A DNA stretch of 64,000 nucleotides from Psammoneis japonica (GCA_008632985.1 QPGO01000005.1:1013607-1077606); one strand, 5' to 3'. Numbered from the stretch's first letter, positions 6,429 through 46,350 are shown. Program-made: numbers and translations. Notes: a model not told the origin generated them from the sequence alone.

Positions 6429-7068
6429 TTGTCACGATCGGTACCTAACCTTTCTAACAGAACAAAACAAAGGGACGTTGTTAGAAACAACGCTGTGGAG
6501 AAGAGGATTGGCTGAAGCTCTTCTATGATTTATACCAGGTTCAGATCATGACCACATATGTACTCTAGTCTATAGCCCTACTTCAACACGAAGAAACTGA
6601 CGATGGGGCCAACAACAACAGGTTCGCATGCGGCTCAGAACCTGCTGCTTGCGCATTTTCGCGCGAGAATATCACTCCCAATCGTTCGTGAAACACTTGT
6701 TACACCTTGTTACGCCTTGCTACGCTTGTCCACGGATGGCTAAGTACTCAATTACACCCTGGTCTACACAGTGTCCCGTTTGTCCACAGGTGTCCAAAAA
6801 AATTCAAAGCAAAACGATGGAGAGTATAGCTCGAGGACCGAACCGGACCTCGCCTGCTCTCTAGAGTAGATAGAGAGCTCACGCGACGACTCCAAGCTCT
6901 AGCCCTACAGTAGTTGAAAGTTGCTGTTGCGGAGCAGAAGTATCGTTGCTGCTCTTGCTATGTTGCTTGTTGGTGCTGTTTCTGGCTAGAGATACGGCAC
7001 TCTACAACAACTGTAAAGTGTGAGTTGAAACGAGTGCATGAGGCCGGTATTTTGTTTAAAGCCTCAAG

Positions 7069-8251
7069 ATGGATCATCGCTCAATCAAACGACCAAGGTC
7101 ACAGGCGGCCGCGGCAGTTGGTAAGCAGGTATTTTCCAACTTCCACGTCGTTGAATGTGCTTACACGTCTCCTCGATTTTTCTTACGTCTTTTATATCGG
7201 TCGCTTCAATCTATAGAACCGGAGGAAAAGGGAGCTAAGCCTACCAAGCCCACAAAAACAAAAAAGAAGCTGAAAAAGTCAAAATCGGCAAAGACAAACA
7301 AGAACAGCAATGAAGAGAAAACGTCCTCGTCTGGAAGGGTATCGTAAGTATCGAGAGGGAATGACATAACTTGCTTAAAACTTTATTCTTTGGTTGCACT
7401 GATGTTTCATCTCCTCTTCACACCTTGTATCGGTATTCAGCATGGGAACGGCCGACGCCGACGGGCAAGCAATGGCTCAGGTGCTGAGTACGTTCAATCC
7501 CATGGAACGGGTTCGTTTTGAAGCTTTCAAACGGTCCACCTTTCGAGGCGATGCTATATCATCTTATGTTGCGCACTGCCTTGCTGCATCACATGAAAGA
7601 GCTTATGCTCGTGGGGAAAAGACTCGACAGCTCATGGGATCATCGACCTTGGGAATTGGCGGTGAAGCCCAGAATGCCATCAGCGCTTTGCCACGGCGAT
7701 GTCCGTATATCCGCGATGGGACCAGCAGCAATGGTCACAACAGTAGTGACACCAGCTCAGTATCTAATAGTGAGAATAGACGACAAAACGGTGGTCGACC
7801 AAAGCGCTCCCTTGAAGATATGGTTGCGCCTGGTCAATCTGAAGAGATCACTGTTGTTGTATCCACACTGGCGAAAGCATATGCACAGCGACTGGTGACG
7901 GCGGCGCGTCGAGTTGCATCTTCCAATGGACGAGAAAATGGAGCACTATCGTCAAGAGATATTTTGATTGCACACCAAGCTCGTGCCGCGGCTGGTTTGG
8001 ATCCAGGGTTCTTCTTGCAACCGGGGCATGCATCGACTACCAACGTGGTGGCTGGTAATTCTCAAGCCTCGGCGGCGGCTCTGGGTGTAGTCAACCGTTA
8101 CGAACTAGTGAGAAATGCCGCCCTTGCAGCGCAAGAGGAGTATGACCAACAGCTAGAACGAAAAGGGGACAAAGAATCGGGAAAACAAATTTGTAAAGAT
8201 TCCAAGGCGGCGGATGAGGAAACGAAAGAAATGGAAATCGAACAGACCTAA
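7069..8251 (+). CDS. TAF11: TFIID subunit TAF11-like histone-fold protein, 2 exons
   Basis: Intron 7344-7440 (GTAAGT..TTCAG) joins the frames; QVLSTFNPMERVRFEAFKRSTF and VVSTLAKAYAQRLV resemble the TAFII28 domain. Confidence 0.65.
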
Positions 8252-8539
8252 TATCTCCTAGTTTGCCAATGCTTGATATTGACGTACCGCTAAAGCCCTC
8301 ATCCATCACATGATAGAGATCATATGGTACGTAGACTAGTTGTAACAAGATCATTCGCTCGTGTCCGTCAACCGTCGCGGGGCGAACTCGAACCACTTAA
8401 TTATCGTTCCACAAGACGTTGGCACAGGACATACCCATTGCTGACTCTACAGAGTACTGTCATACCATGTCGTATCGACAAATTGGTGTGAGCTCCTCAA
8501 AGACACAGGCTGCTACCTAAAGTATTCTTTACTTTTACC

Positions 8540-10377
8540 AGCTGTTTGCAGACAATCAGGACACTCCAACACTTGTGGCAAGAACTGAAGGTGAACCTCA
8601 CACCAGATTGCAAAAGGTGTCAAGTGTCATTTTGTGCAACGCTGGAGTCTTGCTCTCTTTGTTGAGCAGCCTGTTGGAGGAGGCATGTTGACAAAAAGAA
8701 ATCAGCAGTCATCTTGAATTTGTGTCACTCCCAGAGCAGGCGCTCACAGCATGAATGGTGCATTTGATGCCTGCTTCCAGTGTCCTGCACATGGCTGATC
8801 CACACAAAGCATCCTTGGTGGTTTGTGCTTGACCAACTGGCTGGGATGAGAACAGCTGTGGCCACGGCTCTCTGTCACATCTCTCCCATGCCAACCAGAT
8901 GGATGCCCAGGTGTTTGTCTGATGCAATCATCTGCTTTTTGCTGTGAGTGCATGGCAGATGTCCCGCAGAGTGGCTTGTTTGCCTGCCAGTTTGTGGGCA
9001 TGCTCTGCACTTGACTTCTTCTCTGGGCAATCTGCTGGCCTTTCTGTGATGGAGAAGCCACTCTGAAGCTGTGCTGGCATCAGATCTGCCAAAGCCACCT
9101 GCACTCTCAGACAGTCTTTGTGTGACAGTCTCAATGGTGCTTTTGGCAATGATGACATCTTGGACCCCAGGTGGTTTGCTGAGCTTGTGAAAATCATCTT
9201 TTTCCAGCCAAACTTCTCAAACATGCTGTCTGTTTGCTTTGGTTTTCTCATCTGCATCATCCATGAGAGCACCCCAGCATCTTTTTGATGCTCAGAAATG
9301 TGCCTGACTGCTCCCTTGTTGGCTTTCCTCATGGCACCATTCCACCAAGCAAATGTTTTGGCATCTTCTCCCTCTGAGTGGACTTTTTGTTGCACTCAAG
9401 CAGCCGCTCCATTGACTGGGCAAGCATTTTGTGTTTGTCCATGCCCCAGTTGTTTGCACGCCTGTTGAACAAGGCCCTGATGTCCTTGGCTCCTTTTGCA
9501 TTGCAGTCCTGCCACAAAATCATTGCTGGCTGACACACTGCCAACCCACTCTGAGCTCTGCTTTTTTGCATCTCAGCCTGTGCAGCAACTCTGCCAATGT
9601 TGCAATGAAGCATTTCCCCATGGAGGCATTTGAAATGTTTTGTCATGGCAACAGCTTGAGCACTGGCTAGCATCAGCACCCTCGCACATCTTGCAAATGA
9701 TCCGCTCAGCTTGGTGTGACATTGGGGTCATCACATGATGGAAAAGTGACTCCATCTGAGCCTTTCCCACCCTTTGACTGCACTCCACCTTGTGAGGCAG
9801 TCTATCAACAACATCCTGACCATCTCTGCCCTCATCAGCATCATCATCTGTCACTTGCTTGGAGGCTGTTGGGGAAGTGGTGCTTTTCTGCTGGCTTTGG
9901 CATCAGCCTTGTCTTGTTTTTTTTTTTGTCAGCAGCATCAGGAGTGTTCTTGTTGATGAGCTGACAAATTTTCAGCTGCAACAGACCAGTTTCTGAGGAG
10001 GTTGGAAGTCTCTGTGCAGACTCTTGTTCAAACTGTTGGGCTGACAAGTCAGTGCCCTCACCAAAAGGGAGCTCCGTTGGGCTTGCGCTTCCTGTGCTGC
10101 TCCAAACACTTGCTTGGCAATCTCCAATGGCTGTAGATTGTCACAGCATCAATGAACTTGTGTGCAATGACAGGTGCCTGCTGATGCTGAGCGACACATC
10201 GTGCAAGCGCCAAATGACTCACTCCCCTCCAAGCTCCAAAGAGAGAAAGAAGATGGAAAACAAAAGTCTGGTGCCAAGAGAGTGATGACAGTGAAGAAGT
10301 TTTTCTCATGACGAGTCTCCCAGCAAGCCATGTCAGGGGCACAAAAGCGAAAAAAGGTTTGTGACCTCATTGTCATT
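8540..10377 (-). mobile_element. Unclassified degenerate repeat/pseudogene, depleted of both TpA and CpG
   Basis: Only ~3 TA in 1.8 kb by eye; broken minus-strand ORFs 10047-8928 with no Tyr; no family recognised. Confidence 0.45.
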
Positions 10378-10624
10378 CAGTCTTGGCACCAGAACCCCGG
10401 GGCTGAATCCCTGGTTTTTGAAAATGCGGGTTTGAACCCCAAAATGAAAACACGGGATTGAATCCCAGGTTTTTGTTCACGCAGCTCGCAGTGCTTTTTC
10501 TGCACAATTTTGCTGTTTCTTAGAACCCGATGTGACTTTGCTTCCCAGTTCTTGTGGAAAACAGATCACTTGATCCACTGTGTGGTTGCTGCTGCTTGCA
10601 ATGTTGGACAAAGAATTCAATGTT

Positions 10625-13377
10625 TTATGTGGTGTTGCTGCCCTGCTGTTCAATGAGACTTTTGATGTGATTTGCATTCTGTCTCTTCACCGCAATTGAT
10701 GGTGGTGTCCAATCAGTCTTGCGTTTGTTTGAAAACAGCTGAGTGTCTTCCCTGCCAAGCCCATGCAACAGCGCATCATGACAGTCAAGGAAACAGGTCT
10801 TCTTGCTGCTTGCACCTCGGTTGGCAGGGAAGTGCAATGGTTTCCCACACAGGTCGCAACTTGAGCACGAGTCCACCCCGCACCAAACACAGACCCTTGG
10901 ATGCTTGTGGCTGGTGGACACCGCATCAAAGTGACAACGCAAGTGCGGCGCACTGTGACACAGACGAGATTCATTTCCACCCTGCTGAGTGTGTTGGCAT
11001 TGTTCCAATGTCACAAAATTGCAAGTCATCATTGTTTGTTCTGAAGCCGCTCTTCGTTGATGGTTTTGTTGTGTTGCAACCCACATTGCAGAGTCACCAT
11101 GGCACAAACGTGCTTCAGGGTGACACTGCAGCATCTGTTTGAGAGTTGTTCTCAGAACTCCCAGCGACTCATTGGACTGTCGTCTTTCCAAGACAAGTCT
11201 AACCCACCCTCCGCCACTTCCAAATGCATGTCATGCGCAATGACGATGGCCATGGCCTTGCCGTGGTTCATGGCAGAATGCCAGCACTTCCAAGAGCAAT
11301 GGAACATCTTTGCATTTTTGATGCAATGATCCATTGAATCAATTCGTGAGCAAGTTGAAAGATGCAGATCATGGGCTTCATTCATCTTGATTGCCCAATG
11401 TTGCTTGCTCTCGTTTCTGCCTCTTTCCCGATGCCTCGCACATTTGTTACACTGGTTGAGGGCATTCACAGCAGCAATGTTGCACGACGAGGTTGATTGA
11501 AATGAGCAAAGCACACGTTGGCATCCCTCAGTGCTGCGTGTGGGTGCCACAGTCTTGACAGCAACAATCGGATGATTGAACCTTGCTGCTTTTGATCTTG
11601 CATCGGATGGTGTTTGTTTTTTCTGAAAGCACTTCCCTGGCACACCAGAAGGCAGCCGATCCCTTCGACGTGCAAATGCAGCCAAATGGCCATTTTCTCC
11701 AATCCAGTCTGAACTGCAGTCAGCATCAAAGCAGTTGTCACATGTCATGTGTGGCTTTCCTTGGAGTGTCTTCTTGGGTCTGGCATCATCACCCATTCTG
11801 CCAAAATCCACCATTTCGCCTGCTTGTTCCAAGATCACACGGATTTCCGTCGGGCCCATGGCACCCCATCCATCTGTCCTTGGGTGCAATTTGTGTCGGT
11901 GAACACAAGCCCGAGGTCGGATCCGGTGCACATCCGACAAGATCACTGTCTGACCACCCTTGGTGACGCCAGGCTTTCCAACTGTGCGACCGTCAATCCC
12001 GCTGCCAGCTTCACCATAACCAGCATGGCCCCAGGTGGTTTCGTCACCACAATGATCCAATTCTGCATGGTGTGTTGTCGCGTTGACATTGTGAACCATT
12101 GTCGCGTGTGTCATGTCATGCTTGTGGGCCGGGTTGCACCCAGCTTCTCCTCTTCTGGGGGATGTCATGTTGTTGCATGGCTTCAGCACTTGCTTCATTT
12201 GAAGCCAACGTGAATGACCAATTGACAAGGATGTGTCTGAGTCGCAGTCGGATCCATCAGCCATCCACCTGCGGTGAATGGCTCCGTCACTGCCACCCTT
12301 GACGCCATCTCGGACAATTGCTCCATCAAATCTGACAAGCTCATGGATGCTCACAAGTTTGAACTGGTGTCCATGCAAAGAGCACAGCTTCAACTCTCCT
12401 GCGGCGCACAAGTTTGAATGTGTTTCCACTTCGCTGCAGAATGACTTTCTGGGGTCTGAGTTGACACCCAACCGTGTGGTGCCACACATTGGCAGAATCA
12501 ATTGACAGAAAAACAAAGCATCCCAATTTTTCATCCACTCAGCTTTCATTCCCAATGATCGCAACACATCTGCGTCCAATGATCCTTTCCCAATGGCCGG
12601 AAATGGGTTGTCTTTTGATGCGCCCGATCCATTTGGCAGCGACAACATCAGATCTTTGTCATCATCAGCAACATCATCATTGGACATGGACCGATCCCAT
12701 CCCTGACAAAAGAACGCCGTCCATGGGAAATTCGTTTCCCTTCCAAATTCTCAGGTGCCGGTGCGGCGCCAGTTGGCAAGCTGTGATGAATGCACTCCTT
12801 CTCCCCTCTTGCCTCAAACTTGGGGCGGAATGTGTGTCTGCTCCACCCTCCGGGATTGTCCATGTCAGCAAACGGTGGCTCCCCCTTGTTTGCTTTTATT
12901 TCAGGCAGCTGCCACCCTTCAGGAGTGCCTGGAATGTTCAACTGTGCCGACGGGTCACGCTCACCATGGTGCAGCAGCAAGGCAGTGTGGTCGTTGTCAG
13001 CCACAGTCTGCTCGTCACTGTCTTGGTCCACAACATGCGAGATCTCAACCGTTCCAAATGGGCTTCAGCACGAGCTCCATCAATGTCATTGACATTCTCA
13101 TGCTCTTTGTCACTGTCACCACCATCTCCCGTCTCTGTCTCATCCTCAAGGACGTGCTCGGGGCTCACCAGTTGGTCCTCCATGGTTGCGGGACCAAAGT
13201 CTGTGGCCATCATGCACAGTGGCAGCCCTGGTTGTTGTGCTGCCATTCCACCAAACGCTTCATTGGCACTTTCAGAGGCGGCCATCTTCGTCACGACGTT
13301 GATGCTCCGATTCACTGAGCATGTTGCTTTGACGACAATGGCGGTGGCTGCGGTTGTTGGTTTTTTTTTGTAGTCAT
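10625..13377 (-). pseudogene. piggyBac-family DDD transposase, frameshifted and Tyr-eroded
   Basis: CGDETTW (1st D), TCDNCF (DN[YW]F), IDSMDH (3rd D region), SWKCWH, and C-terminal Cys-rich CVWC..CDLC...CFLDCH. Confidence 0.75.
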
Positions 13378-13584
13378 CGGCTTTTCAACATAGACAGGTA
13401 ACATTTCTGCAGTGCGGTGATGCGTCACTGCAAAAAACCCGGGATTCAGTCCCCGAACACCTGGGTTTCAAGCCCACTCTAACAACGACAACAAAATGCC
13501 AATGTAACTCCAACCACCAGACATGTGTTTGAAGGGCAAACAGTCATTGACATCCTGACTAAAACCTCTGAGTAATTGTCAATG

Positions 13585-14026
13585 GATTCGACAGTGTGCG
13601 ATGCCGATCTCACCCAGGACTAGCCCAAGGACTGCCTTGCCAAGAACCACTAAGAAGCAACTCGATGTTAGAGCACTTAGAAGTCTCACAGAGCAGAGTT
13701 TTTGGCAACACTCTGCTCCGCACTAGGGGGGTTGGGTAAACCCATGCCCTCCGCAGGGTCTCGAGTAAAACTCGAGGGCTCGATGATTGTTTCATCAGAC
13801 CACACTCCGGGCGCTTCCGAGCGAACGTAGTGGGGGGTGCCTTCGGCATATGCGACGTCGGTGCCCCGAACTAGCAGGATCTCAAACTTGGAATGGAAGA
13901 GAACGCCAGACGCCATTTGTTCGATTGCGCAGTTGGGCGTCGTCGAGAACATGGAACCGAAAGGAGCCGATCTAGACTTCAGCGATAGACTCCCACGGTC
14001 TTGTCGATGAAGGTGAGCACAAATCC
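13585..14026 (-). repeat. Split direct repeat B2 (3' terminus)
   Basis: Aligns end to end with 14282-14723. Confidence 0.95.
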
Positions 14027-14044
14027 AGGGAGTGGTGGGTGGGC

Positions 14045-14280
14045 AGCAAAAAACAGCTTTTCCAATGCTTTGGCATGGTCCAGTCACGTTGATCAGAGTT
14101 CCTGTCTCAACAAAGATGGAAAAGTGGGGAAATGGGATGCCGATGAGTTTGACCGGTCACAGAAACCGGTCATCTTGGCCCAGAGGTACCCTCCTCTGGA
14201 AGAGGCACATGTCGATGGACTGGCCAGATGAGAGGTCTTGCCTCGCACGGTTCGTCTCCATCTAAACTTGGGTGCGAAGA
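14045..14280 (-). repeat. Split direct repeat A2
   Basis: Aligns with 22907-23142, 5 differing sites. Confidence 0.95.
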
Positions 14281-14281
14281 T

Positions 14282-14723
14282 GATTTGACAGTGTGCGATG
14301 CCGATCTCACCCAGGACTAGCCCAAGGACTGCCTTGCAAGAACCACTGAGAAGTGACTCGACATTAGAGTGCTTAGAAGTCTCATAGAGTAGAGTTTTCA
14401 GCAACACTCTACTCCATGCTAGGGGGGTTGGGCAAACCCATGCCCTCCGCAGGGTCTCGAGCAAAACTCGAGGGCTCAATGATTGGTTCATCGGACCACA
14501 CTCCGGGCGCTTCCGAGCGAACGTAGTGGGGGGTGCCTTCGGCATTACGCGACGTCGGTGCCCCGAACTGGCAGGATCTCAAACTCGGAATGGAAGAGAA
14601 CGCCAGACGCCATTTGTTCGATTGCGCAGTTGGGCGTCGTCGAGAACATGGAACCGAAAGGAACCGATCTAGACTTTGGCGATAGACTCCCGCGGTCTTG
14701 TCGATGAAGGTGAGCACAAATCC
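14282..14723 (-). repeat. Split direct repeat B1
   Basis: Aligns with 13585-14026. Confidence 0.95.
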
Positions 14724-14806
14724 CCCCCGATGAGAACTCCCAGGTGGTGGCCACCACAGAGATTAGCTTGTGACAAACGCACCCTGAAGGCGCATCCGAG
14801 CTGGTT

Positions 14807-16310
14807 TCACATTTCATGAGTGCACCTTAAGAAGCAAGGGAGGAGGAGAGAGATGTCAGCGCAGTGTTGCCTCATCTTGTGAGTCGGCCTCATCCCTCCA
14901 GCTCGATCCTTCTTTTTCCACCGATTCACCATGTCAATGTCGTCCTCCGACACATTTCGAGCGATGGCTCTCAAATCCGACCCGCGTCGGAAGGACCTGC
15001 TCACATCGCACTTGTCCTCAATGTCCGAATGGGAGGTGATGTCTGCCCCAAAGAGGGAAGGGTGGTCGTCAAAAAGCTCCAACAGGGCGAGGTGAAGAAG
15101 CACATTTAGGTCATGAGTGGACAAGACCTTCCCAGTGTCATCCAATGTGGCTGGGCCTCGAGCTTGTCCTCTTGATGCCTGAAAGGTCACAACTGCCTGG
15201 ACCCACTGCCGGAGGCGAGCACCTGATCCCGTGACATTTGCACTGGAAGCAGGTGTTGGCGCTCCCCATGTTCTCCCTTGACTCGACCGAGAAGCGGAAT
15301 CACCACGCAGGATTGATGGAGAGGCAGGTGTTCTCACATGGCGCCCAAATCCACAAGTGAGCCTTCGGGGCCTCGGAGGGACAACGTGAAACTAGCCGCG
15401 AAGTGGAGGCCACCAGTCAAGCACCTGAGGCGATCCTCAGCTGCGGTGGCCCGGTTGAACTTCTCTTCGATCCGGGGCAAAAGATGTTGCATGATATGCG
15501 CCGAGATGGCCCTGTCTGGTCTCCAATCTTGGCCCACGCGCCTTTTGCAACCTGTCACAAACCTTTGGAACCAGAGGGAAGCGCAAGGGTCCTCGCAAAT
15601 GCGGAGATGTTGTTCACCCTCAAGGTCCGCAAGCGCCAAGGCTCGCCTGTTTGCAGAAGCCGAGGACCTCACCTGATTTGAGTGCGCAGTCCGCAGCTTC
15701 CCAACAGTGTCGAATTGAGTGTAGAAGTCAGAGCACTGACCCGGGGACGTCGAAGCCAAGACCATCTGCATCGCAACCTCACACCCACAGTGATCAAAGG
15801 GTGGCAGAGGTCCTGGCTCCAAGTGAGGACCTCGGAGCCCCAAACGCTCTGAGAGAGCTAAACCCCAGGCGACCTTGGACGCATTGTTCTCTGCCGTGGA
15901 GGTCTCCCTGCTCCAGAAAGCGTCCAGGTTAACCCGCCTGATGCAAGCCAAAGCCACCTGGTCACATGGTGAGGTAGAGAAGGGGTCTCTCCGGCACAAC
16001 TTGTGGAAGATGCACCCGTCGCACTCAAACACCACCATCAAATGGTCCCCGGTTCGCGCCCGTGTAAACTTGTCCTTGTCCTGCGGTTTCCGGAACCAGG
16101 TGTTGTCCTCGATCCGAGCGGCGTCCTCACCGGGAAGTTCCTCGCCGTTGTTTTGTTGGTCGGGCTGGAGGATCCCCCCCAGGTGGAACGTCACGTTTTT
16201 GCTTGAAGTGTGGCACCCGGGACACCACGCTTTTCGACACGCGGGCCAGCCCCCGACACTGTGAACAAAATTGACGCAGAAGATGCCCCTCGTCCACTTC
16301 AGCATCCTCC
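14807..16310 (-). pseudogene. Tyrosine recombinase of the YR retrotransposon (frameshifted)
   Basis: LSLRGPEG (catalytic R), SRSFRRGS (HxxR position), RW, MRQHC at the expected catalytic Tyr position; N-terminal CPGC and FECDGC. Confidence 0.8.
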
Positions 16311-19300
16311 ACACTCTGCGCAGCGCCCGGTCCATTGAGCACATTTTTGGGGTGCCTCGGAGCTGCCACGGACTGTGTGGGATGAAAGGAAAAGCAAGGC
16401 CTGTGAGCAGAGGTTCGAACATCTCACCGGGCCAGAAAGGCCCGGCCCCAGCCAGAACTCGAAACACCAAGTCGGCTGCCTTGTGCAATTGTTTTTGCCA
16501 CTCAGGGGTCATCAGGCGGGGACACACAAAGATGTGGAAAGAAGTCTGTCGCTTGAGTCGGGCAATCCGCAGTTCTTCGAGTGCATTCCTTGCTGCTGCC
16601 GGGGGCGGAGCCCAGACCCAGGTGCCAGAGCGAAAGGCAGGCACTTGAACTGCTTCGTAGGGTGGGCAGCACCACCCAGATGTGTCATGCCCTTTCTGAC
16701 ACCAATCAAGCGGGGAGAGTAGATTGGCTGTGGGAGATCCAGCCCAAGACTGAATCCACCCCAGGAGTGGAGGTGCTCGCTCAGTTGCCGGCAGGTGCAA
16801 GGGGACAAACGAGAGCATCTTGGCTCCATTCATCACCCCTTCCGAAAGGACCCCTCGAGAGACTCCGTCCGTGCCCTGGGCTGTCATGCGACTCCCCGAA
16901 ACATGAATCAAGTGGAACACAAACCCACACTTAGCCTCCAGGACTCTGAGCCGCACTGCTTGTTCCAGGAGTTTCGGGTTGGAAGAAGTTCCCTTGTAGA
17001 CGGCGATTTCCGAAACCGAATTGTCGGTGAAGAAATGCAACACAGCACGGTCGAGTTCCCCCACCTCGGCCAGTTCCTGGATGGAGTCCACTGTGTTGGT
17101 TAGTTCCTTCCAGTTTGACGAGTTCGACTGGTCGTCATCGCCCCAGACACCAATCCTGAAGACTGTCGCCCCGTCCTTCGTTTCTACTGAGGATCCAAGT
17201 CCCTCACCCGATGCGTTGGCAAACCCATGCAAGACCACCACGACCTTAGAGGACCTGATTACCCTGGTGGTTGGTTTTTCAGGTTCCAAGATCCACTGCA
17301 GAGCTTTCAGATCCGACAACAGACGCGGCACCACGCGAACGGACTCGGGGTGCCCCGCATCCTGGAGGGCCTCCCTGACTTTGTACGGTTCCATGCCGAG
17401 CTTGTCCGCTTCGTGCTGAATCCACACTGCATGTTCCTTGTCTGACATGGCCCATCCATTGGGCTTGCGGTTAGGTCGCCACCCATCCAGGGTCAAGTGG
17501 ATTCCTTTAAGGAATGGGGCAATGAAAGGGCAGGTCATGGCCGCGTGGACCAAATGTCCTCGTTTCCTCTCCAAATCCTTGAAATTGAACAGTGGGAGGG
17601 AGGAGGCGGCCAATGCGTCGCAGGGGCTCAATGGGTCTGTGATCATCGTCTTGCTCTTGTCCCACTTCGCTTGCGACAGGGATTGGGCAACGTCCCCATC
17701 CATTGCTCGAAAGATCGCTCCGGCCCAGGCCCCGGTTTCGTGCTGGGATGGCGGGCGCACCTTCCGGGCCGCGTTTTGGAGACCAAGACACTGGAGTCTC
17801 GAAGCCATTTGATGACCCACTTGCCAAGCCTCTTCTTCGCTCGATCCCATGCCCCGCAGATCATCGACGAAGGTCTTTATGTCGCCTGCGATGACCGCTT
17901 GACGGGAGTTCCACTTGACCACCAGGGGCTTCTTCACATCGTAATCGGGATCGCCCGGCAGATTGAATGGGATCTTGTCAAAGCCCATTGGGTTCCCCGG
18001 CCGTCCCGGGTCCCCCCGGGCCACCTCATCAGCCCAATGACAAGCGCGCACGGCCAGGTGAGGACTGGGTTTCATGCCCATGAATGAGCGGTTCCACCTC
18101 TCCAACCCCACAGGAGCCTGACCCGCCAAAGGTTTCGGCAAGTGGTCGCGAAGCGGGGTCAGGTCGATCCCGGCGTAAGGCCGAATGCGGGGGTCCACAA
18201 AGAAGTTGAGAAACACATCCCCCAGGTCCAAGTCAACAGAGAAGGTGGTTGGTGTCATGCAGCCGAGGACTGAGGATGCAGTCGGGAGGAAAAATGAAGG
18301 TGCCCACAGCGCGTCGTTTAGCCCCGACGAGGTGCCGTTGTAAACCATGCGAACATCTTCCACGACCTCTTCTATTCTTCCATCGCTTCTCAGCAGCAGA
18401 GACACCGCCTTGGGGACCCAAAAAAAAAAAACAGTTGGTGAGGCTGGACACTGGGCCCGCCTCAATGTAACCGTGATCCCGGACCTTCTGAAGTTTTGTT
18501 GCCATCCGCTGGATCTCATTGGACGTGCCGCGGATGCGTTGCCGCCGGCGATTCCGAGGGAGGGTGGTCTGGACGAAGATCGGAATGCCGTCACGGGCCC
18601 CCTCCCGCTGCTCGGGAGAGGGCCAGCCAGAAGAAAAGCGAGGACCCCCGGTCCCAACTCCACCAAGAACTCCCCAGAGCTTGAATCAAGACGTCAGCCC
18701 CCAAGTTGGCGTCCAACAAAAGGGAGGGGAGAGGTGGGTCCCAGTGCAAACCCCCCTGTAGACTCCCAACAGAGTCCCCAAACCGTCGACAAAGGTGTGC
18801 CAGGCGGGTCATCCACCCTGGGCCGTGACACCGATGCAGGAAACCCAATGGCGACCGGGTCAAGCGTCGCCGCCACCACCGGTGGGCCAGCCCGCGAAGG
18901 GCCGGAAGCACGGTTCAAACACAGGAAACAAGAGTGTGATGCGCTTGTCCCAAAGGCGATGAGGGGGGGCGACCGAATCCCCTTTTGCTGCCTTGGCGGC
19001 AATCAGGGACAAATCGATCCAGTCGTGCGACAAGTGCCGACCCAGGCGCGGCAACCATGCAGCCCGAGGACCAGATGCCGGAAGCTCAGGAGGCCGCGCA
19101 GGTGGGGCTGGCTGGACCTCCGGCGGCAACTCTGGGCTGGAGTGTTGTAAAATGAAACTGTCCGTCACCGCATGGAGGAGGTTTGACGGAACCATCTGAG
19201 TGAGGCCTTCACCCCCCAATCGGTCCCGAACAGCTTGAGACCGAAACCGAGTGGGAAAATCCCACCCTGCAAGGAGTTCATCTCCAGTGAAAGCACGAAG

Positions 19301-19523
19301 AGTCCACCCCGTGGGTGACCGGTGGGACTGGCAAAGAACCTTCGCCCCAAATGGTGGGGGTGCAGCAAATCGCACTCACGGCACACCGTTTCTCCCGGCT
19401 CTGATGGGCCAACCTGCCCCTCGCATTTGCAATCGATGATGTGGCCGATGGTCCGCCGCAACCCGTGATCGAGTTGTGGCAACGCGCCCCCGATGCAGCA
19501 GAACGTTGTTCGGAAAAGTCACG

Positions 19524-19970
19524 TGAAGTGTGCATGCAGACAAAAGGTCATTTTTGTCATGCCCTTTGTGACATTTAAAGGCTGTAACACGTCGCCGTGA
19601 TACATTGGCTCTTGTTGGCAGCTGCACATTGCACTCCTCCCCATGTGTCACGCGTCCACACGGCTCTTTACTAACGTGTGCTGACACTGCACGGTTTTGG
19701 CAGAACAGTGTGGGCACGTGCGAAGGAACACACAGAACTGCACAGAGTTTTACGCGTTCGACAGTGATCAACGTTGCTGCAGACAACTCCCACTCAGGGT
19801 TTCGAACCCCTGGCCTCCTGCCCAGTGGTTGCGATGTGCCACTCCGCTGTGAATTCACAACGAAGTGTGCATGCAGACAAAAGGTTGTTTTTGTCACGCC
19901 CTTTGTGACATTTAAAGGCTGTAACACGTCGCCGTGATGCATTGACTCTTGTTGGCAGCTGTGTGTTGCA
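19524..19970 (-). mobile_element. 447-bp non-autonomous mini-LTR element (TRIM-like)
   Basis: 110-bp direct repeats 19524-19633 and 19861-19970; TG...CA ends; 4-bp TSD CACG (19520-19523, 19971-19974); polypurine tract GGGGAGGAG (minus strand, 19634-19642) next to the 3' LTR. Confidence 0.85.
19790..19855 (-). promoter_or_regulatory. tRNA-like Pol III A-box/B-box cassette inside the TRIM
   Basis: Minus strand CAGCGGAGTGG (19849-19839; TAGCNNAGTGG if TA is restored), then GGTTCGAAACC (19808-19798) ~30 bp later within a CAGGG/CCCTG hairpin. Confidence 0.55.
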
Positions 19971-20419
19971 CACGCCTCCAACCGCCGAATGAGCAATGGC
20001 CGAATGAGGGAGATGCTGGAGCCCCTTCAACGCTCGTCTCGACGTCCCCCCGACCGGGACCATGCACATCGGGCACGTGGTCCCCACTCGCGAAACTCTT
20101 TCCAAAACACTGGGAGGGCCCGAAACCAGTGCCAAATCTGCGCTCTCCAATGCATGAGGCACCCCAGAGAAAGGGATCCGCTGAAGAGAAGCTCCGTCTT
20201 GCGACTCAAAAAGCGCAATGAGGACCGACTCCAAGGGAGACGGGTCAGAATCAATCGAGCAAAGGACAACTCAGGCCACTCAGCACAGCGGAGGGCCAAG
20301 AGCCAAATGGGGGGACCCCCAGAGATGACCAAGCATGTCCCGCGAAAAGCAAAGGATTTGCGGCCGTGAATGACGTGCCCCACATTTTCATTCACCTGTG
20401 GTGCGCCCCCCCCCTGGCC

Positions 20420-22889
20420 TCATTTCTTTGTCTCCAGAGCCTTCAGATGACGGTTCACCTCTTTCAGCTCCACTTTTAACTTGTTCACCTCTTGGTGTGC
20501 CGCATCGGCTTGTGCCTGCGCCAACTTCGCTTCCGTCCCCGCACTCTTGGCCTTGTCGGTGAGGGTCACAACCGCGGCCTGCAAAGCTGTCACCACTTCA
20601 AATCCCGAATTGGTCGCGAGGAACTTGACATGCTCAGACGCCATCGAGGGGTGGTCCTTGAAGTTGTGCGCTGTGCATTCGGCCATTGCGTCCTGGGACC
20701 TGAACACCGCCCAAAGAATTTGACTGCACACCGCATCGGGATCCGTCCCAGCGATCGAAGTGAAAACCCCCGACCGAACCTGGTTGAGGTCATCGAAGAT
20801 GCGGTGTGCGAGTTTCGACGTTAAAGACCAAGCCTGTTTCTGAGAAAACTTGCTCAACTGCACAAGATTTTCGCAGGTCTCGTCCATGAACTGCATCAGG
20901 GCCCGTGCGAATGCCACGGACTTGGCAGAGCGTCTCGAACAACCTGGCTCTCAAAAGAACCGCTCGGGATCCTCTGGGAGATGTCATTTAGTGTGTTGTG
21001 TTCGATCGTGACGATCTTCTCCATGACAAAGTGTTCAGTGCCAGTGGACCCAGTCGTCCAATGGTCATGGGATGACACCTTGTCCAGGAAAGAGGGGTGT
21101 GGCCCGGGTGACTGAGCTCCTTTCGCTGACCCCGAGTCAAGGATCCTCGGCATGCTGCATTGGAAACTGGCGAGAGTTCGCACATCCTCCTCCACACTGA
21201 TCTTCAAGTCCATCCGTTTGGACAACCCAGCAAGGAAGTAATGCAACGCGGCCGCCTCGGTGCCCGTAATTTGGTCCAACAACAAATTGGCATCCGCAAG
21301 ACAGCCATGCGCTCTGGAGGAAAAATGCTGGACCATCCAGGCCTCGCACTCTGAAAATGACGAAACGCCTGCACCCGAGAATTTGATGGCTGAAGATTCC
21401 GATTTGGACTTCAGCTCATTGACCGCTTGGCTGAGGTCTCGGATTTGACGATCGAGTGTCCCAGAGGGCGAGACACCCGCTCCACTCACCCCGCTGCCGA
21501 AGCTGGCGACTCCTCCACCCAACGTAGCGGCGATCTCCAACCTCTGCACTTTTGCCACTAGTTGGTTGCAGACTCTTAGGGTCCCCGCCCTCAGAGAGTC
21601 CAGGTCGCGTTTAGGAGTGAGGCTGGAGAGCTGGGCCTGGACCCTTTGAAGAGCTGCAGTAAAACTTGACGCCAACCTGTTGGACCCGGCCCGAGCGCTG
21701 CTTTCCAAGCGGGCCATTTCAGTAGAAAAATCCCGAGGTTGAGCCAAACTCAGTGTCGACAGGTTGGCGAGCGTCCCCCAGATAGTTGGGGCTTCCACTC
21801 GCTGGTCGAGCTCCGCCGGAGGGGTGCCAAGAGTGGCACTGAGCTGTTCCAACTTCCAACTCAGCACATCAAGCACCAAGTCCGAGTCTTTGAACCTGGA
21901 GTGGGCTTTGTTTCCCAAGTCGACCAGAACTTGTCCCGTCTCCGACAAGTTTTGTTCGACCGACTGCACCACACGAGCTGGGGCCGCCGGGCTCTTCTTT
22001 GCTGCAAGAAATTGGGACGGGGCAGTGGCAATCGCCCGTTGGCAAGGGGAGAAGTGGCCAAACTGTGACCCCGGAAACAAATCGCTCCCAGGATCCTTGG
22101 TTTTCACTGGGGTTTTGTAGGCCGCAGCCTCCTTGCACTGCTTGAGAGACTCGCCAAACTGGTCCTCCGTCGGGAAGCGCGACTCACTGTTTCCCAGAGC
22201 TGGGAACTTCTGACGCCACCCCGCCAAGGTGTCCAACGCTGACTCCCACTTGACCAACACATCAGCAGAGACAAATGAGCCGTCAAGAGTGGGTTGGCAG
22301 AAAGCTGCATCCGGCGTCTTCAAGATGGACACCATGCCGTTCGGAGGCACTTGTTTCTTGGATCCCTTGTGTTTCACTTTGCAATCCGAGGCTTTCTTGA
22401 AACAAAATGTCGCACCACTCCCAATTGCACCAAGGCACCAGGTGGCATCGGTGCCCTCCATCCAGACGACACGAAAACGAGGAGCATCAGACGAAGGAGA
22501 CGTGCCTTCCTCCTTTGACGTGAACGCCCCTCGAGTTGCTCCCTCATCTCCCGGAGCAAAAAAGTCCACGCGCAGTGCGTGGGCCTGCACTCCGTCGGCT
22601 CGCGAAAGAAGGACATCAAAAGCCGAATCCGGGTTGGGGGAGTTGACCTCCCCCAACTCCGCGAGCTCAATGTCCGAGTGCCCAGCGTCGGTCATTCCAA
22701 GGTCCAAGCCCCCAAGGGAGGGGTTTGGGCCCTCAGTGCCCCCTGATGACCCACCCCAGAGGGTGGGGCCCGAGAAGCGGGCGACGGAGGAGAACGCGAC
22801 GAGAACGGAGAGACAACATCTGACTTGAGAGTGCGGGCAATGTTGACGAAGGCCTCGTCATCGACGCCGGAAGCAAAGAAGTCAGACAT
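20420..22889 (-). pseudogene. gag-like ORF1 of the YR retrotransposon (frameshifted)
   Basis: First frame after repeat A1; WCLGAIG...FC.K...CKVKH putative Zn motif; HNFKDHPSMASEHVKFL followed by a coiled coil. Confidence 0.75.
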
Positions 22890-22906
22890 GTTCGAGCGAG
22901 AGAGGG

Positions 22907-23142
22907 AGCAAAAAACAGCTTTTCCAATGCTTTGGTGTGGTCCAGTCACATTGATCAGAGTTCCTGTCTCAACAAAGATGGAAAAGTGGGGAAACAGGAT
23001 GCCGATGAGTTTGACCGGTCACAGAAACCGGTCATCTTGGCCCAGAGGTACCCTCCTCTGGAAGAGGCACATGTCGATGGACTAGCCAGATGAGAGGTCT
23101 TGCCTCGCACGGTTCGTCTCCATCTAAACTTGGGTACGAAGA
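22907..23142 (-). repeat. Split direct repeat A1 (5' terminus)
   Basis: Aligns with 14045-14280. Confidence 0.95.
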
Positions 23143-23361
23143 GGTTGTTGGATCTTTCCGTTCAACGGCTAACGGCTAGTGGAAAACCCGGGACTGAATC
23201 CCGGGTTTTTCGGGGCGCCCAGACCATACATCATAAACGATAGTGCGAAATTCGATGCCGACGTGGCACGTGGCGCGCCTCATAATTTTCATGAAGAAAA
23301 CCGCCGCAGACAATGAACCGCCGCTGGAGGAGAGAGCGATCCCAAAGGAAATCGAGATATC

Positions 23362-25097
23362 ATGTCTAATCTATGGGGTGAACTAATACCTATTTGGCCG
23401 AGGGTGTTTCTCGATCTCTTGGCATTGGCGTTTGAGGGATGCTGTTTGTACTTGACGTTTTCCAAGAACTTGGGCAATGATACAGCGGGATATGGATTTG
23501 CTTTCTTGCTTGCTGCCCTTCTTTTAACGGTGATAACATCTGGATCATTCACAAATCGATGGACCTTGACACTTCCTCTTATTCCGTTCTTGGTGGCACA
23601 ACTGATGCTGGTATGGATCGACTCAATGAACGACATGAGCGAAGGGAAACCTTTGGGTGTTCTTAGAATTGGTATTTGCGCATTTTCTGTGCTTGCCTTC
23701 TTGATGGGGGCCTTGCTCTCTTTGTTGTTCCCAGCAGTACAACTTCCAAAAGCTGATGGTCCGTACAATATGGGTGTTGTTGACTTGCATTTACCAGTAG
23801 ACAATGCCAAGCTTGGAAATGTGATTGCTCGCATAGTGTACCCCACCACTCAGAAACGACCAAAAGGCATTCCTTATTTGAATCCAAGCACTGCGATTGA
23901 ATTTTGCAAGGCAACAATGGAAATGGGCGCGCCGGATCACCTCAAGAAGCTCAGTTTTATGCTCCACAACTACAGACTGATTAACTTACCTTTGATTCGA
24001 AATGCAACGCCAATGGAAAAGCAGTTCCCGATTTGTATCTTTTCGCATGGCTTGGGTGGAACAAATTATATCTATTCATATCAAATCATGTCCCTTGTAT
24101 CTCATGGTTATATCGTTTTGAGTTTGGACCATACGGATGCAAGCGCCCCTATCGTCCAACGAAAGGATGGAACTCTCCTGTGGAGAGATGATACCGTCGG
24201 GAAGCTGCCGGAAATAGAATACGTTCGTAAGTGAGAAGTGGATTGATTGCACATTAGTTGTACTCGTCAGAGGATTGCTCAAACTCTCGCAACCTTTATC
24301 TGAAACAGGAAAACGAAGATCTCAAACGGATTTGCGAGTAGATGAAATGCTCGCTGCGGCAGTTGCCTTGCGAGGACTCAACAAGCGCAATATTCCAGAG
24401 CTTGAATCGTTGGGGGTTTCCTTTGTTGACAAGATGAATGTCGATAATGTTATCTTTATGGGACACTCATTTGGGGGGGCAACAGCAGTGTCCGCCGCAT
24501 GCCGACTACCGGTAGAGCTGAATGACGGAAAGGCTTCATTTACAATCGTGGCTCATGAGCCGGCCATGGATTGGGCTCCCGATAATGCACGAAAAGCACT
24601 ATTTCCGCCCCACAAGCTAAGGGATTCCTTCCATGAGTATAATGGTGGCACGGGTGGCTATCTGGAAGAAGAGGAAGATGAACCGGTCGATTTCAATGCA
24701 CCGGCGCCTAAAACCCCACTCGACAAGGTCAACATGCTATTTCTGTATTCTGATGAGTGGGCAAAACAGGTAGGTTGTGTTGGCTGTCACGTTCCTCTCG
24801 GCTATTCGAATTCAACTGATGCGTTCGCTGGGCCCCTTTTGTTCCATGTAGAATTGGGGTGGATCTCATTTAATCCAATGCATGCATCGCCGTGGACAAT
24901 TAATGCATACGCATTGTGAAGTCGGAATCATTGCAAAATCTAAGCACAATGAGTTTAGCGATATCAACATGCTCACGCCTCTGTGGCTGGCACGCAGTGA
25001 GGGATTGACTGGGCCGCGTAACCCTGTAGACACTGCTCATGAAATAGCGGCAAGGACACAATCCTTTTTACAAACAGTCTTCAGCGCGAAGGAGTAG
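23362..25097 (+). CDS. PAF-acetylhydrolase-like alpha/beta hydrolase with N-terminal TM helices, 3 exons
   Basis: FSHGLGG, SHGYIVLSLDHTD, GHSFGGAT, H..FSD; introns 24227-24308 and 24770-24851 restore the frame. Confidence 0.85.
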
Positions 25098-27396: not shown

Positions 27397-29519
27397 AATG
27401 GGGGTAGTAGTATCAATAAAGATAGATTGGTATCAGAGTGTTTCAATGCAATCAAAACTTGAAATGTGTGACGGTGAGCGTGACGGTCGCTCGTTGTTGC
27501 GGTTTCAGGTTGGCCCATTCGTGAATGCGTAGAAACTGTACCAGAGAAGCCCGTAGAAAATCCGACGCAGTCTCTCACGATTTTCGAATTTCGCTGGATG
27601 TTGGCACGTTTGCATTCGGTTAGTCGTAGGCTTCTTGGTAGGAACAATCAGAGACCGAGACTGACGATGGATGTATTCATAATGAATATTATCTATTTTA
27701 GAGCCATTCTCTATAATGATATTCCGTGTTACTTCGACAGAGCCCATTGTACTTCTACGCTTCAAACATTCGAACGCACTTTACAACGGTCGTCAGTCAA
27801 AAAGTAGCCTGCAGCTTATCGTGCTTGCTCTGCGGCACGTCAGGCCTCAAATTTGTTGAACAACCCTCTTGACGAGAAATGGTGAGCTGATAAGACTGCC
27901 CACTCTCTGTCCCCAACATTGAGGAATAGCCTCGATCCGGCCCACAATGATGTCGGTTGTGATAAATTCGAACGCGTCAACTCCGTTCATATTGAAGGCT
28001 TGTTGCCGAGACTTGTACCCATTTCACCGTTTTCATCGTAGCCACAGCGCCAATGGAGCGTGCGGCGTGTATCAAAACAATATAAATTCACTTTTGAAAC
28101 AAACGAGCAAGGAGGATGCTTCAATACGCCCTAATCCCACCACGTACAATACTTGGCATGCCTTCCTCCGCATGAGCTTAACAATACTCACAGTAAATAA
28201 AACTACCATGCACCCAGGAATATTCAAAGAAGAGATGATCATATTGTGATAGTATTCGCTTGCACGAAACTCCAACCGGCCTCTAACTGGAGCGCAAGTG
28301 TCGGTTTCCGCCAGATGACCCATTGAGAATTCAAACAGCGCCACATTGATAGAATCACTTTTATCCATGCTCAAACTCAGCAAAGTCGGAATGATGAATC
28401 CAAAGGTATTAAGCTTCATTGTTTCAACAAGCTCGTATTGAACAAAGCCTAGTCAGTCAACTGATCTCTCCCTCCTATTGCAAATGGATGTGAAAAGCTC
28501 CCGGAGCAAGGCTAGAAGAACAAATCGAGTCCACACAGCGGCTGGGAAGAAAAAGGAGGTTGCGCCACGTGGTACAATGCAGAGAAGACTGCTCGTATTT
28601 TGTATGATAAATCGCCCTTGTATTGTCGGAAGTTGTAAGTTGTGACCAATAAATGGGGAGGCCGCCATTTCGTTCGGCAAGCAGTGCTCGTCGTACCGTA
28701 ATGTCAATCACACTGGAGCCCATGTCCCCTCTACCGTACTTGCGAAGCGGGGTCAGTCTCGAGACAACATGTTTTTGATATGATGATTTCACAGCATTCT
28801 CTTCTTCGTAAGCAACGGGTAGCAATCAAGGGTGTGATAGGTACCATTTGATAGCAGATAAAAAAATACAGACCCCTGTGCTGCTAAACTCCGGAAGCTA
28901 GCAAAGAATGGTTGGAGTTTTACCATCAATGGTACGAACGATCGAAAACTGGCGTCATATATCACATAACGTTCAGTGAGGAATTTGTCGGGATGAGTTT
29001 TTCAAAGAAAGAACAACAGCTTCCTCTTGCCACTGACTTGTCCATCCGTCTATCCGTCAGCACCTTGTACAATTACCTGCCATTCTCTGGCAACTTTGGT
29101 TGCGGAAGCTCCTCTGACGCAGCAACAATTGCGGCTCTTTGTACGCTTTTGACGACATTGTTGCGCGTTCGGGGCTCTGGAGAAGCCCAACGAATCATCA
29201 CGGAAACATCACTCAAAGACTTGGACGAGCTTGTGAGAAGGAGGCTCCCGACAAATGCAAGGGCAGGTCAAGAATCAGGGCCAACAGCAACTGGGTGGCA
29301 GCCATGTCCTTCAGCATGGGCGGGTGAAGCGGCGATGTGAGTGATGTGTACCACGGTTCAACGCAGCCACCGCCGCCCATCGCCGCAATCGAAATCGCGG
29401 TGAAAAAATGAGGATGACGTCGCGATTTTTGGCGGGAGGAATGTCCGTCCTTCGCCACTGTGCCGTCGGTCAATCCAGATTGCGCTGACAGAACATAGGA
29501 AAACGCCAAATGCTTTTAG

Positions 29520-32470: not shown

Positions 32471-32807
32471 TGTTGCAATCCCAGAAACATCTTGCCCGCA
32501 AGTACAACCCGACATGATGTTCGCCGTCGCCCTCGTCATCTTTTGGCTCACCGCACTCCCAAATAATGGGAGGTGCATGATGCACGGCATGCATGGTCTC
32601 GCCGGTCCGCATCTTTCTATACCAAAAATATAAGTGCCGAATAAATTGAATGATGCGGATCTTATGACGTGTCTTGCGAAGGTTGGATGCGTCGAAGATG
32701 TCACAGATCGACTCCTGGTCCATGGCGGATGGCGGCGGCGACTTCATCGTTTACAGTATCACGCTGATCGTCTATTGATTGGCATAGAAGTCTTCTAGCT
32801 GGTAAAG

Positions 32808-43097: not shown

Positions 43098-43279
43098 CTA
43101 CATTAGACTATTTATAGTTTGGCGTATCGCGAGCGTTGACTGCTATCACATAACGTTATCTCTAAATTTGCTTTCTCGTGCGTGTTTATTCTCTAACTAG
43201 TCCCAGGAGGCTCGCAAATTTCGCATCTTTCTTTTCTACTCTCTAGAGAGCATGTAGCTAGCTGCTTCAAAATTGAGAT

Positions 43280-46200: not shown

Positions 46201-46350
46201 TGGCTTTTGTCTTTGATGTCTGCCATTGCTCGATCGTTGCAGCTTCGCTTTTTGCTTCTCAACTTTTTTTGCCTCGGTGCGCTTCGCGTCGCTCGACACT
46301 GACCGACCGAACAGCGAGCTTAGCTTGCTGTGCTTGGATTGACGAGGTTT
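43280..46350. mobile_element. Unclassified TpA-depleted degenerate block with a ~134-bp tandem duplication (43442-43703)
   Basis: TA depletion, fragmented ORFs, duplicated GCCTTGTGACATG...AAAACCAGAAACAATGACATCAAAG. Confidence 0.45.

Follow-up and report, generated by a model that had tools for sequence, protein, structure and literature searches.

TpA erased to TpG and CpA in probable integrated repeat blocks, one of them a retrotransposon, in a 64-kb window of the Psammoneis japonica assembly

TpA-depleted blocks at the locus

We analysed a 64-kb stretch of the Psammoneis japonica assembly (GCA_008632985.1, QPGO01000005.1:1013607-1077606; the whole stretch is called the window), in which five blocks of DNA, A to E, stand among genes of eukaryotic type and are depleted of the dinucleotide TpA (Table 1). 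The blocks were delimited from the gaps between successive TpA, of which the window holds 1861 in very uneven spacing. Most of its 1-kb windows carry 32-76 TpA per kb, with an observed/expected ratio (o/e) of 0.47-0.99, whereas 9001-13000 carries 2-3 per kb (o/e 0.03-0.05), and the o/e falls to 0.04-0.15 at 29-32 kb, 0.06-0.36 at 43-46 kb and 0.02-0.23 at 55-58 kb. About 37% of the window is TpA-depleted; the window minus the blocks (about 40 kb) holds 1720 TpA at an o/e of 0.63. The longest TpA-free runs measured 1132 bp (8536-9668), 1186 bp (55632-56818) and 931 bp (22118-23049), and with a background rate of 0.0427 TpA per position the chance of a 1132-bp run is about 1e-21. The block edges are sharp, to tens of bases: at the left edge of block A there are 18 TpA within 8314-8536, and the next one is at 9668. 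The 212-base spacer between blocks A and B retains six TpA (13391, 13399, 13480, 13505, 13560 and 13573), and the depletion thus follows units, not the neighbourhood. An earlier note on this DNA had described TpA as nearly gone after about 8540, with about ten TA up to 13360, and had seen the same texture at about 29.5-32.5, 43.3-46.3 and 54.9-57.7 kb; both descriptions agree with our count of nine TpA in block A and with the positions of blocks C, D and E.

Table 1. Blocks and features in the window, with positions counted from its first base
Feature	Position	Strand	Properties	TG/CA counts	Basis
Block A	8537-13371	.	Near TpA-free repeat block; 9 TpA, o/e 0.03	550/509	TpA gaps, edge mapping, composition
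P0012	11155-12750	-	532-aa open frame inside block A		Translation, composition
A/B spacer	13372-13583	.	212 bp, pre-insertion flank of element B		Run X1 contigs join 13583 to 23143
Block B (element B)	13584-23142	-	9.6 kb, retrotransposon with split direct repeats, partly TpA-depleted; 86 TpA, o/e 0.19 (tallied over 13372-23142, spacer included), 0.18-0.19 overall	701/749	Repeats, relatives, composition, empty site
Repeat X copy 1	13585-14026	-	93% identity with 14282-14723		Self-comparison
Repeat Y copy 1	14042-14280	-	96.7% identity with 22904-23142		Self-comparison
Repeat X copy 2	14282-14723	-			Self-comparison
Polymerase region of element B	14775-19342	-			tblastx matches to all 80 related loci
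P0010	15337-18693	-	Longest open frame, 1119 aa; predicted reverse transcriptase + RNase H type fold		Fold match, homologues
P0011	20899-22857	-	Upstream open frame of element B, 653 aa, Tyr 0.3%		Translation, composition
Repeat Y copy 2	22904-23142	-	One terminus of element B		Self-comparison
Block C	29142-32503	.	16 TpA, o/e 0.07; CpG o/e 0.29	386/338	1-kb windows, TpA gaps
Block D	43360-46321	.	20 TpA, o/e 0.10; CpG o/e 0.59	303/296	1-kb windows, TpA gaps
Block E	54868-57698	.	5 TpA, o/e 0.03; CpG o/e 0.42	298/267	1-kb windows, TpA gaps

The missing TpA is matched by a gain of TpG and CpA. As against a background of 1.11 for CpA and 1.13 for TpG, the o/e in the blocks was 1.20-1.83 and 1.30-1.72, respectively, the two rises being about equal, while CpG fell to 0.29-0.76 from 1.00 and ApT changed little. 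In blocks A, C, D and E the deficit of TpA plus CpG equals the surplus of TpG plus CpA within 36 dinucleotides; for block A the balance is TA -176, CG -182, TG +188 and CA +198. The loss of CpG explains about half of the gain of TpG and CpA in the blocks. CpG o/e differs by block, being 0.07 at 9-10 kb, 0.09 at 30-32 kb and 0.76 in block B, and CpG-type changes occur outside the blocks too (52 of 252). Since its degree varies by block and it is common outside them, we treat the CpG decay as a separate process, probably deamination of 5-methylcytosine, distinct from the loss of TpA. The earlier note had left this drop in CpG out of account. Methylation of adenine (N6-methyladenine) at ApT was considered and rejected, ApT not being depleted.

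The earlier note knew of no description of such a system, a statement that is now outdated, as the same signature has been measured in lines of Bigelowiella natans (Mettrop et al., bioRxiv 10.64898/2026.01.13.699255). In this preprint, 231 of the 302 new nuclear mutations in 15 mutation-accumulation lines fell in integrated giant-virus and virophage regions, and 230 of these 231 were A to G or T to C changes, all on TpA and giving TpG or CpA by strand, at a rate of about 6e-7 per site per generation and in 11 of the 15 lines. The B. natans genome (callable 85 Mb, 90% of the total) has 124 TpA-poor, CpA+TpG-rich clusters, its TpA-poor genes are enriched for reverse-transcriptase and DDE domains, and an ADAT2-like adenosine deaminase was proposed as the cause; the main text mentions neither 'diatom' nor 'CpG'. 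A cluster, as the preprint defines it, is a row of three or more adjoining 1-kb windows in which TpA o/e is no higher than 0.43 and CpA+TpG o/e no lower than 1.52. Four clusters in our window reach these values, with CpA+TpG of 1.68-1.86 at 9001-13000, 1.54-1.86 at 29001-32000, 1.56-1.62 at 43001-46000 and 1.52-1.62 at 55001-58000. It was the single description of such a process found in the literature searched, mainly open full text, and a search for TpA hypermutation, repeat-induced point mutation (RIP) or deaminases together with diatoms gave no diatom report in open full text, a scope outside which most subscription journals lie.

Block B, a retrotransposon with split direct repeats

Block B is a discrete insertion, as two contigs of the public run X1 join 13583 straight to 23143 and so present the empty site. 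About 2650 contigs of a public run mapped to 7000-24500 at 80-99% identity, and the families of blocks A and B are therefore multi-copy. The terminal layout of element B on the minus strand, Y...X-Y-X, we take to be the split-direct-repeat layout of DIRS/Ngaro/PAT-type retrotransposons. Such elements share with element B the split direct repeats, the reverse transcriptase and RNase H fold and the lack of a detected integrase or protease domain; they carry a tyrosine recombinase instead of a DDE integrase. A Pfam search of 75 frames gave no recombinase, integrase or protease match, and the C-terminal 300 residues of P0010 are poorly modelled.

The longest open frame, P0010, carries an FVDD motif. 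Its AlphaFold model, built from 32 sequences, had a mean predicted local distance difference test score (pLDDT) of 66, high at residues 110-800, and the top Foldseek matches of this model were the reverse transcriptases of cauliflower mosaic virus (CaMV), Moloney murine leukaemia virus (MMLV), Ty3 and HIV, at E values of 5e-13 to 1e-10, a probability of 1.00 and 500-660 aligned columns. By this modelled fold, element B is a retrotransposon with reverse transcriptase and RNase H. A set of 5.8 billion proteins gave 117 homologues of P0010, down to E 1e-222, of which the only named ones came from the diatom Cylindrotheca fusiformis and from one MMETSP transcript, and a representative library gave 6921 family matches at E<=0.001; the family also includes many metagenome contigs of about 8 kb. 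RVT_1 gave weak matches in two of the homologues, while a profile search of PDB sequences with the P0010 alignment stayed at chance level and the IMG/VR scan returned nothing. No Pfam model covers the P0010 family, its reverse-transcriptase nature being visible by fold alone. In P0130, one of its distant members, a C-5 DNA methyltransferase domain is present. As metagenome comparison set we took the best 80 of 478 confirmed relatives of element B; parts of 20085-22902 had tblastx matches to 2-32 of these related loci. P0011 lies in this interval and, judged by its position, may have a gag-like role; the ESM Atlas gave no usable match for it.

Element B also holds a stretch, 19264-20431, at which the summed depth of run X1 was about 30,000-40,000 compared with 54 in the single-copy flank, depths in runs X1 and X2 being sums over contigs and not copy numbers. 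Its high-copy core at about 19625-19861 lies between 100-bp repeats at 19525-19624 and 19862-19961. Nowhere else in blocks A and B does the RNA-like run X2 give appreciable cover; its contig here is 226 bp long (19629-19854, depth 162). This insert contains a GGTTTCGAACCCC-like motif that recalls a tRNA T-arm, and it may be a very abundant insert resembling a short interspersed nuclear element. ARAGORN, Rfam and TRF over 8-24 kb, the insert included, found nothing.

Direction of the change

A change of TpA to CpA or TpG within tyrosine codons replaces tyrosine by histidine (TAY to CAY) or by cysteine (TAY to TGY). As compared with the 117 homologues, in which tyrosine averages 2.37% with a minimum of 1.0%, P0010 has 0.6%. 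At the six alignment columns in which at least 60% of the homologues have tyrosine, P0010 has tyrosine twice, histidine twice and cysteine twice, whereas in the same column test 17 of the 18 other residue classes were 64-100% conserved in P0010, isoleucine having two columns, both changed. When the limit was lowered to at least 40% tyrosine, 13 columns were obtained, with tyrosine at four, histidine or cysteine at five, phenylalanine at three and another residue at one. The histidine/cysteine share at consensus-tyrosine columns was thus 0.38 in P0010, whereas the 117 homologues averaged 0.04 and none lay above 0.19, so that the earlier note's remark on His or Cys at positions of expected Tyr in the transposon proteins holds for five of 13 columns, more than in any homologue. 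Furthermore, the loss did not follow the reading frame: TpA per 100 codons was 0.63/0.71/0.89 in the three phases of P0010 and 2.35/4.50/4.91 in the 46 relatives whose open frames reach 900 aa or more, and since TpA is 4-6-fold rarer in all three phases, its loss is blind to coding.

Among the best 80 of the 478 relatives the median TpA o/e was 0.59 and the minimum 0.34, and block B, at 0.18, lies below all of them, which indicates at the level of composition that the family of element B is not natively TpA-poor. This bears on the possibility that the blocks are foreign DNA, for example viral, which avoids TpA and CpG by native composition or selection, under pressure from nucleases or from RNA decay at UpA, with no mutation by the host. 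A joint suppression of UpA and CpG with an excess of UpG and CpA is familiar in RNA viruses and mRNAs, and no relatives were identified for blocks A, C, D and E, both of which would suit such an origin. However, an o/e of 0.03 is far under the 0.34 of the lowest of the best 80 relatives of block B, the loss of conserved tyrosines to histidine and cysteine would not be tolerated by selection on a working element, coding and non-coding parts are depleted alike, as are the three codon phases, and repeats have diverged in place by the same change. We therefore give native composition only a very slight chance.

Four of the relatives (L071, L076, L040 and L079) had a TpA o/e of 0.34-0.40 with CpA/TpG of 1.25-1.34, L071 and L076 coming from a microbial-mat metagenome. 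Their composition hints, if weakly, at a wider occurrence of this process in other organisms.

Timing of the change and the strands affected

Repeat copies inside the blocks differ by the same change. The three repeat pairs of block B show 32 events: ten of TA against TG or CA, nine double changes of TG against CA, nine of CG against TG or CA, and four others. This agrees with the earlier note, in which paired repeats were said to differ as TA against TG/CA. When the tandem duplications in blocks D and E were added to these pairs, 26 of 63 events were of TpA type; for three duplications lying elsewhere in the window the figure was 17 of 252 (odds ratio 9.7, p 2e-10). The remaining block events comprised 18 of CpG type and 19 others, including nine other transitions. 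In block E a 200-bp tandem duplication has 15 substitutions, with six TG/CA doubles and six CpG-type changes among them. The few bases listed at which mapped contigs differ from the window include such TG/CA doubles too, at 12076-12077 and at 12097-12098 in block A. In the repeats of block B, TA is retained by either copy, site by site, so the copies were hit independently. Repeats inside elements of the long-terminal-repeat and DIRS types are expected to be made identical at each retrotransposition, and the differences between the copies should therefore date from after insertion. Only three repeat pairs were found in the 80 metagenome relatives, and these, at 99.3-99.8% identity, were too young for a spectrum.

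The counts of TG and CA are near-equal in every block (Table 1), and their order along the blocks is random (runs-test z -0.94 to +1.09), which implies that both strands were hit and that each TpA was resolved independently. The pattern is what a process working on duplex DNA at a palindromic step would leave, and does not fit processive editing of one exposed strand or of an RNA copy. Editing before integration, by an ADAR-like enzyme on RNA or by a deaminase on single-stranded cDNA, with the mutated copies then inserted as happens with APOBEC3 on retroviruses, would explain without any targeting that block edges coincide with element ends. Like the process seen here, ADAR hyper-editing and APOBEC3 leave clusters of deaminase-type transitions in mobile elements; they act, however, on RNA or single-stranded cDNA and with strand bias, whereas here the change is symmetric and follows integration. 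To our knowledge ADAR is confined to animals. Editing confined to one strand should leave TG in excess over CA, or the reverse, with respect to the coding strand, or else long stretches changed on a single strand; no such pattern was seen. The repeat copies within an element, which a new round of retrotransposition would be expected to equalise, differ by TpA-type changes in both directions. According to the B. natans preprint, ADAR favours a 5' U, which is the context found here, yet the mutations in that alga arise in integrated single-copy DNA (bioRxiv 10.64898/2026.01.13.699255). On balance, editing before integration appears very unlikely to us.

The same spectra bear on a passive cause, in which a mutation or repair bias of heterochromatin, for instance a spontaneous TpA lesion left unrepaired in compacted methylated repeats, would act without a dedicated enzyme. 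CpG decay in the same units means that they are probably methylated and silent, and targeting would then need nothing but the chromatin state. On the other hand, adenine deaminates slowly of its own accord and with no specificity for TpA, and transitions of other kinds were rare in the block repeat pairs (9 of 63). In B. natans, moreover, the rate was about 1000x baseline and affected only 11 of 15 lines, suggesting a regulated activity (bioRxiv 10.64898/2026.01.13.699255). A passive bias is accordingly a very improbable explanation. Two further candidates were rejected: an ultraviolet thymine-adenine photoproduct, which would not be confined to repeats and leads mainly to transversions, and GC-biased gene conversion, which would not be confined to TpA, other transitions being rare.

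We also considered that the signature might arise in sequencing or assembly, from a base modification at TpA in heterochromatin being misread as TG or CA. The platform is unrecorded for both the assembly and run X1, and modified bases are known to give transition-like miscalls on nanopore instruments. Run X1 holds 62% of the words sampled from 6500-16400, and one of its contigs, 1451 bp at a k-mer depth of 66.5, equals 8476-9925 with 0 mismatches and spans the left edge of block A; noisy reads would not yield such a contig. Near-identical repeats, moreover, differ in outcome at the same site (TG in one and CA in the other, or TA kept in one), where a context-driven miscall would be alike in both. 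Clean high-depth 31-mer contigs together with these differing outcomes (TG, CA, TA) make a modification-driven miscall unlikely, and in B. natans Illumina data gave the same signature (bioRxiv 10.64898/2026.01.13.699255). We regard an artefact as extremely improbable.

The TpA that survive are not a random sample. Among the 127 left, ATAC had 0.05x and ATAT 0.22x its background share, while CTAA, CTAG and TTAA had 2-2.5x, and of 12 TpA common to both copies of the block B repeats seven were TAG/CTA. A preference for flanking bases is thus present, in small numbers.

Block A and blocks C, D and E

Run X1 has many diverged contigs for block A, with a summed depth well over that of the single-copy flank (54). 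The block is probably made of two units, as CpG o/e rises from 0.07 in 9001-10000 to 0.41-0.55 over 10001-13000, and the summed depth is about 150-330 before 10.5 kb and 640-970 after it. Its frame P0012 (Tyr 0.2%, Cys 4.5%, His 5.8%) has a length that was reached in 0 of 300 composition-matched first-order Markov simulations, and block A was therefore once coding: P0012 is a relic of coding sequence in a multi-copy, formerly coding block. Scans of Pfam, the ESM Atlas and IMG/VR gave no family, cluster or viral relative for P0012, and its single-sequence fold (pLDDT 31) was unusable, so that no fold was assigned. At 10380-10470 several short tandem GGGTTTGAACCCC / GGGATTGAATCCC-like motifs were noticed, resembling that of the high-copy insert in block B.

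In blocks C, D and E no open frame exceeded the length expected by chance in simulation and no Pfam family was found. Over all five blocks, Pfam on 174 stop-to-stop frames of at least 70 aa gave no transposon or viral family, nor did a scan of a further 8 frames, in which the two flanking genes were the sole real matches; six weak matches in these scans all lay under the curated cut-offs. No convincing terminal inverted or direct repeats were found for blocks A, C, D and E, and neither nucleotide self-comparison nor tblastx revealed similarity between blocks. The earlier note's term 'transposon-restricted' holds, on this showing, for block B only, block A being an unclassified multi-copy sequence and blocks C, D and E having no identifiable origin.

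A probable process acting on TpA after integration

We consider it highly probable that the blocks are integrated repeated or mobile DNA which was rewritten in place, after integration, by a TpA-targeted process turning T:A into C:G. One of them is a retrotransposon and the others would be degraded past recognition. The T:A pair of a TpA step would be turned to C:G where it stands, and as TpA is self-complementary, a hit on one strand would read as TpG and a hit on the other as CpA, the two being randomly interleaved because each site is hit independently. The process would keep to element boundaries and come near to saturation, with the loss of tyrosine codons, of TAA and TAG stops and of TA-containing signals. 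No new stops would appear, as TA to TG or CA never makes a stop: TGA comes only from TAA, already a stop. With TAA and TAG lost in this way, long frames inside the blocks do not count as evidence of function. A second process would act on the same units, namely ordinary decay of CpG to TpG and CpA, which presumably arises because cytosines in silenced repeats are methylated. The likeliest reading of this behaviour would be an editing activity that the host directs against chromatin that is silenced or foreign. The signature, its direction, its timing after integration, its action on both strands and its confinement to bounded blocks are established here, whereas an enzymatic cause, the choice of targets and a role in defence are inferences. 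As to chemistry, a DNA adenine deaminase is our leading guess, and a modification of T that mispairs with G would be equally compatible with the sequence, which fits T or A as the altered base equally well. A T:A to C:G change at TpA on both strands of repeat DNA had been put forward in the earlier note, and it is supported by the tyrosine polarisation, the codon phases, the repeat differences, the mass balance, the lack of strand bias and the TpA-richer relatives.

Several observations weigh against this reading. Survival of TpA depends on context, so that more than the dinucleotide itself governs the change. Among the five blocks, B alone is a proven mobile element, and this block passes the TpA threshold of the B. 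natans clusters but misses the CpA+TpG value of 1.52, its 1-kb values being 1.15-1.50. The tyrosine test comprises only 13 columns, and polarisation used outgroup proteins and within-element repeats in place of family copies from the same genome. In the tandem pair of block D just 1 of 16 substitutions is of TpA type, and as an ancestral CpG can also yield TG against CA, some of the 16 doubles may be products of CpG decay. Run X1, finally, may be the assembly's own source, with its platform unrecorded, and is not fully independent.

Relation to known systems

The hypermutation of B. natans is alike in turning TpA to TpG or CpA by strand, in its sharply local action on integrated DNA that is not host-like, and in its TpA-poor, CpA+TpG-rich clusters. 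B. natans is a chlorarachniophyte, whereas the host here is a diatom-like stramenopile, and its targets are viral, whereas the best-defined target here is a retrotransposon. In B. natans new mutations were measured, while here the process is known from standing sequence alone; the near-absence of other mutation types in that alga does not hold here, in what is a loose comparison of long-term differences with new mutations. TpA o/e is 0.45 in the nucleocytoplasmic large DNA virus region of B. natans and 0.03-0.10 here, near saturation; about 37% of this window is affected as against 124 clusters in the B. natans genome; and CpG is co-depleted here but does not appear in the main text of the preprint (bioRxiv 10.64898/2026.01.13.699255).

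Fungal RIP is likewise a permanent, dinucleotide-specific transition on both strands of repeated DNA, bounded by the repeats, which disables transposons. It converts CpA to TpA, however, and so makes TpA and stops and lowers GC, whereas here TpA is destroyed, GC goes up and no stop can arise; RIP raises TpA/ApT and lowers (CpA+TpG)/(ApC+GpT), and the blocks run in the opposite direction, with TpA o/e down to 0.03-0.19 and CpA and TpG up to 1.2-1.8. In B. natans a single-copy region was hit during vegetative growth (bioRxiv 10.64898/2026.01.13.699255). In methylated transposons 5-methylcytosine deaminates at CpG, which accounts for the lost CpG and for roughly half of the added TpG and CpA, but this cannot remove TpA. 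In dinoflagellates, another lineage of the SAR group (stramenopiles, alveolates and Rhizaria), 5-hydroxymethyluracil is an enzyme-made modification of T tied to transposon silencing, an epigenetic mark and not a reported mutation signature (PMC11572971). Such a base would give T to C if mispaired with G.

The blocks thus provide a second lineage for a known kind of process, and what is new in them is the retrotransposon target, the near-complete erasure of TpA and the CpG decay alongside. We know of no eukaryotic process selectively destroying TpA that had been recognised before 2026. The sole earlier report is a preprint on one chlorarachniophyte strain (bioRxiv 10.64898/2026.01.13.699255), and the present case shows that the process is peculiar neither to one alga nor to giant-virus inserts, and links it with the control of transposons and with the decay of methylated CpG that these units also undergo. 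A broader proposal, which we put forward tentatively and regard as rather doubtful, is that TpA-directed T:A to C:G editing may be an old and widespread arm of genome defence in SAR, at least in Rhizaria and stramenopiles; in diatoms, along with cytosine methylation, it would drive the pyrimidine-purine steps of silenced transposons to TG and CA, through one dedicated enzyme, a DNA adenine deaminase or a modifier of thymine, that silent chromatin brings in. If so, this arm would act as RIP reversed: besides raising GC and making no stops, it would remove tyrosine codons, signals of the TATA and AATAAA types and sites of TA targeting. The question now lies in a group with genetic tools, and the enzyme could be sought by comparing genomes with and without the signature. 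Such blocks also defeat homology-based annotation of repeats and genes, as seen from the 174 frames lacking a Pfam match and from spurious long frames, TAA and TAG being gone.

Flanking genes and other features

The genes around the blocks are eukaryotic, encoding TAFII28, CAF1, a CLC channel, QRPTase, a P-type ATPase, an HA-domain protein and RPB2. The best named matches of the 828-aa ATPase frame, at 63-68% identity, are from diatoms (Nitzschia, Pseudo-nitzschia, Odontella and Chaetoceros), none exceeding 72%, and by such similarity the genes of the window appear diatom-like (stramenopile), which places the DNA in a diatom or a near relative and not in B. natans. Run X2 showed no cover over 8752-13423 or 14008-19263 and near none over 19848-23351, and was present on both flanking genes, a distribution that is not evidence of silence. 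At 24227-24308 we noticed an 82-bp GT...AG intron which is removed in a contig of run X2; run X2, although listed as 'DNA?', therefore holds RNA-derived sequence. Removal of this intron fuses the PAF-acetylhydrolase frames 23317-24234 and 24218-24919 into one gene. On the plus strand, 32799-38192 holds an open frame of 1797 aa in which units of about 390 bp, diverged to 70-78% identity, follow one another in tandem. It has a strong A-over-T skew of 0.23-0.31 and no Pfam family; its product is probably a repetitive secreted or cell-surface protein.

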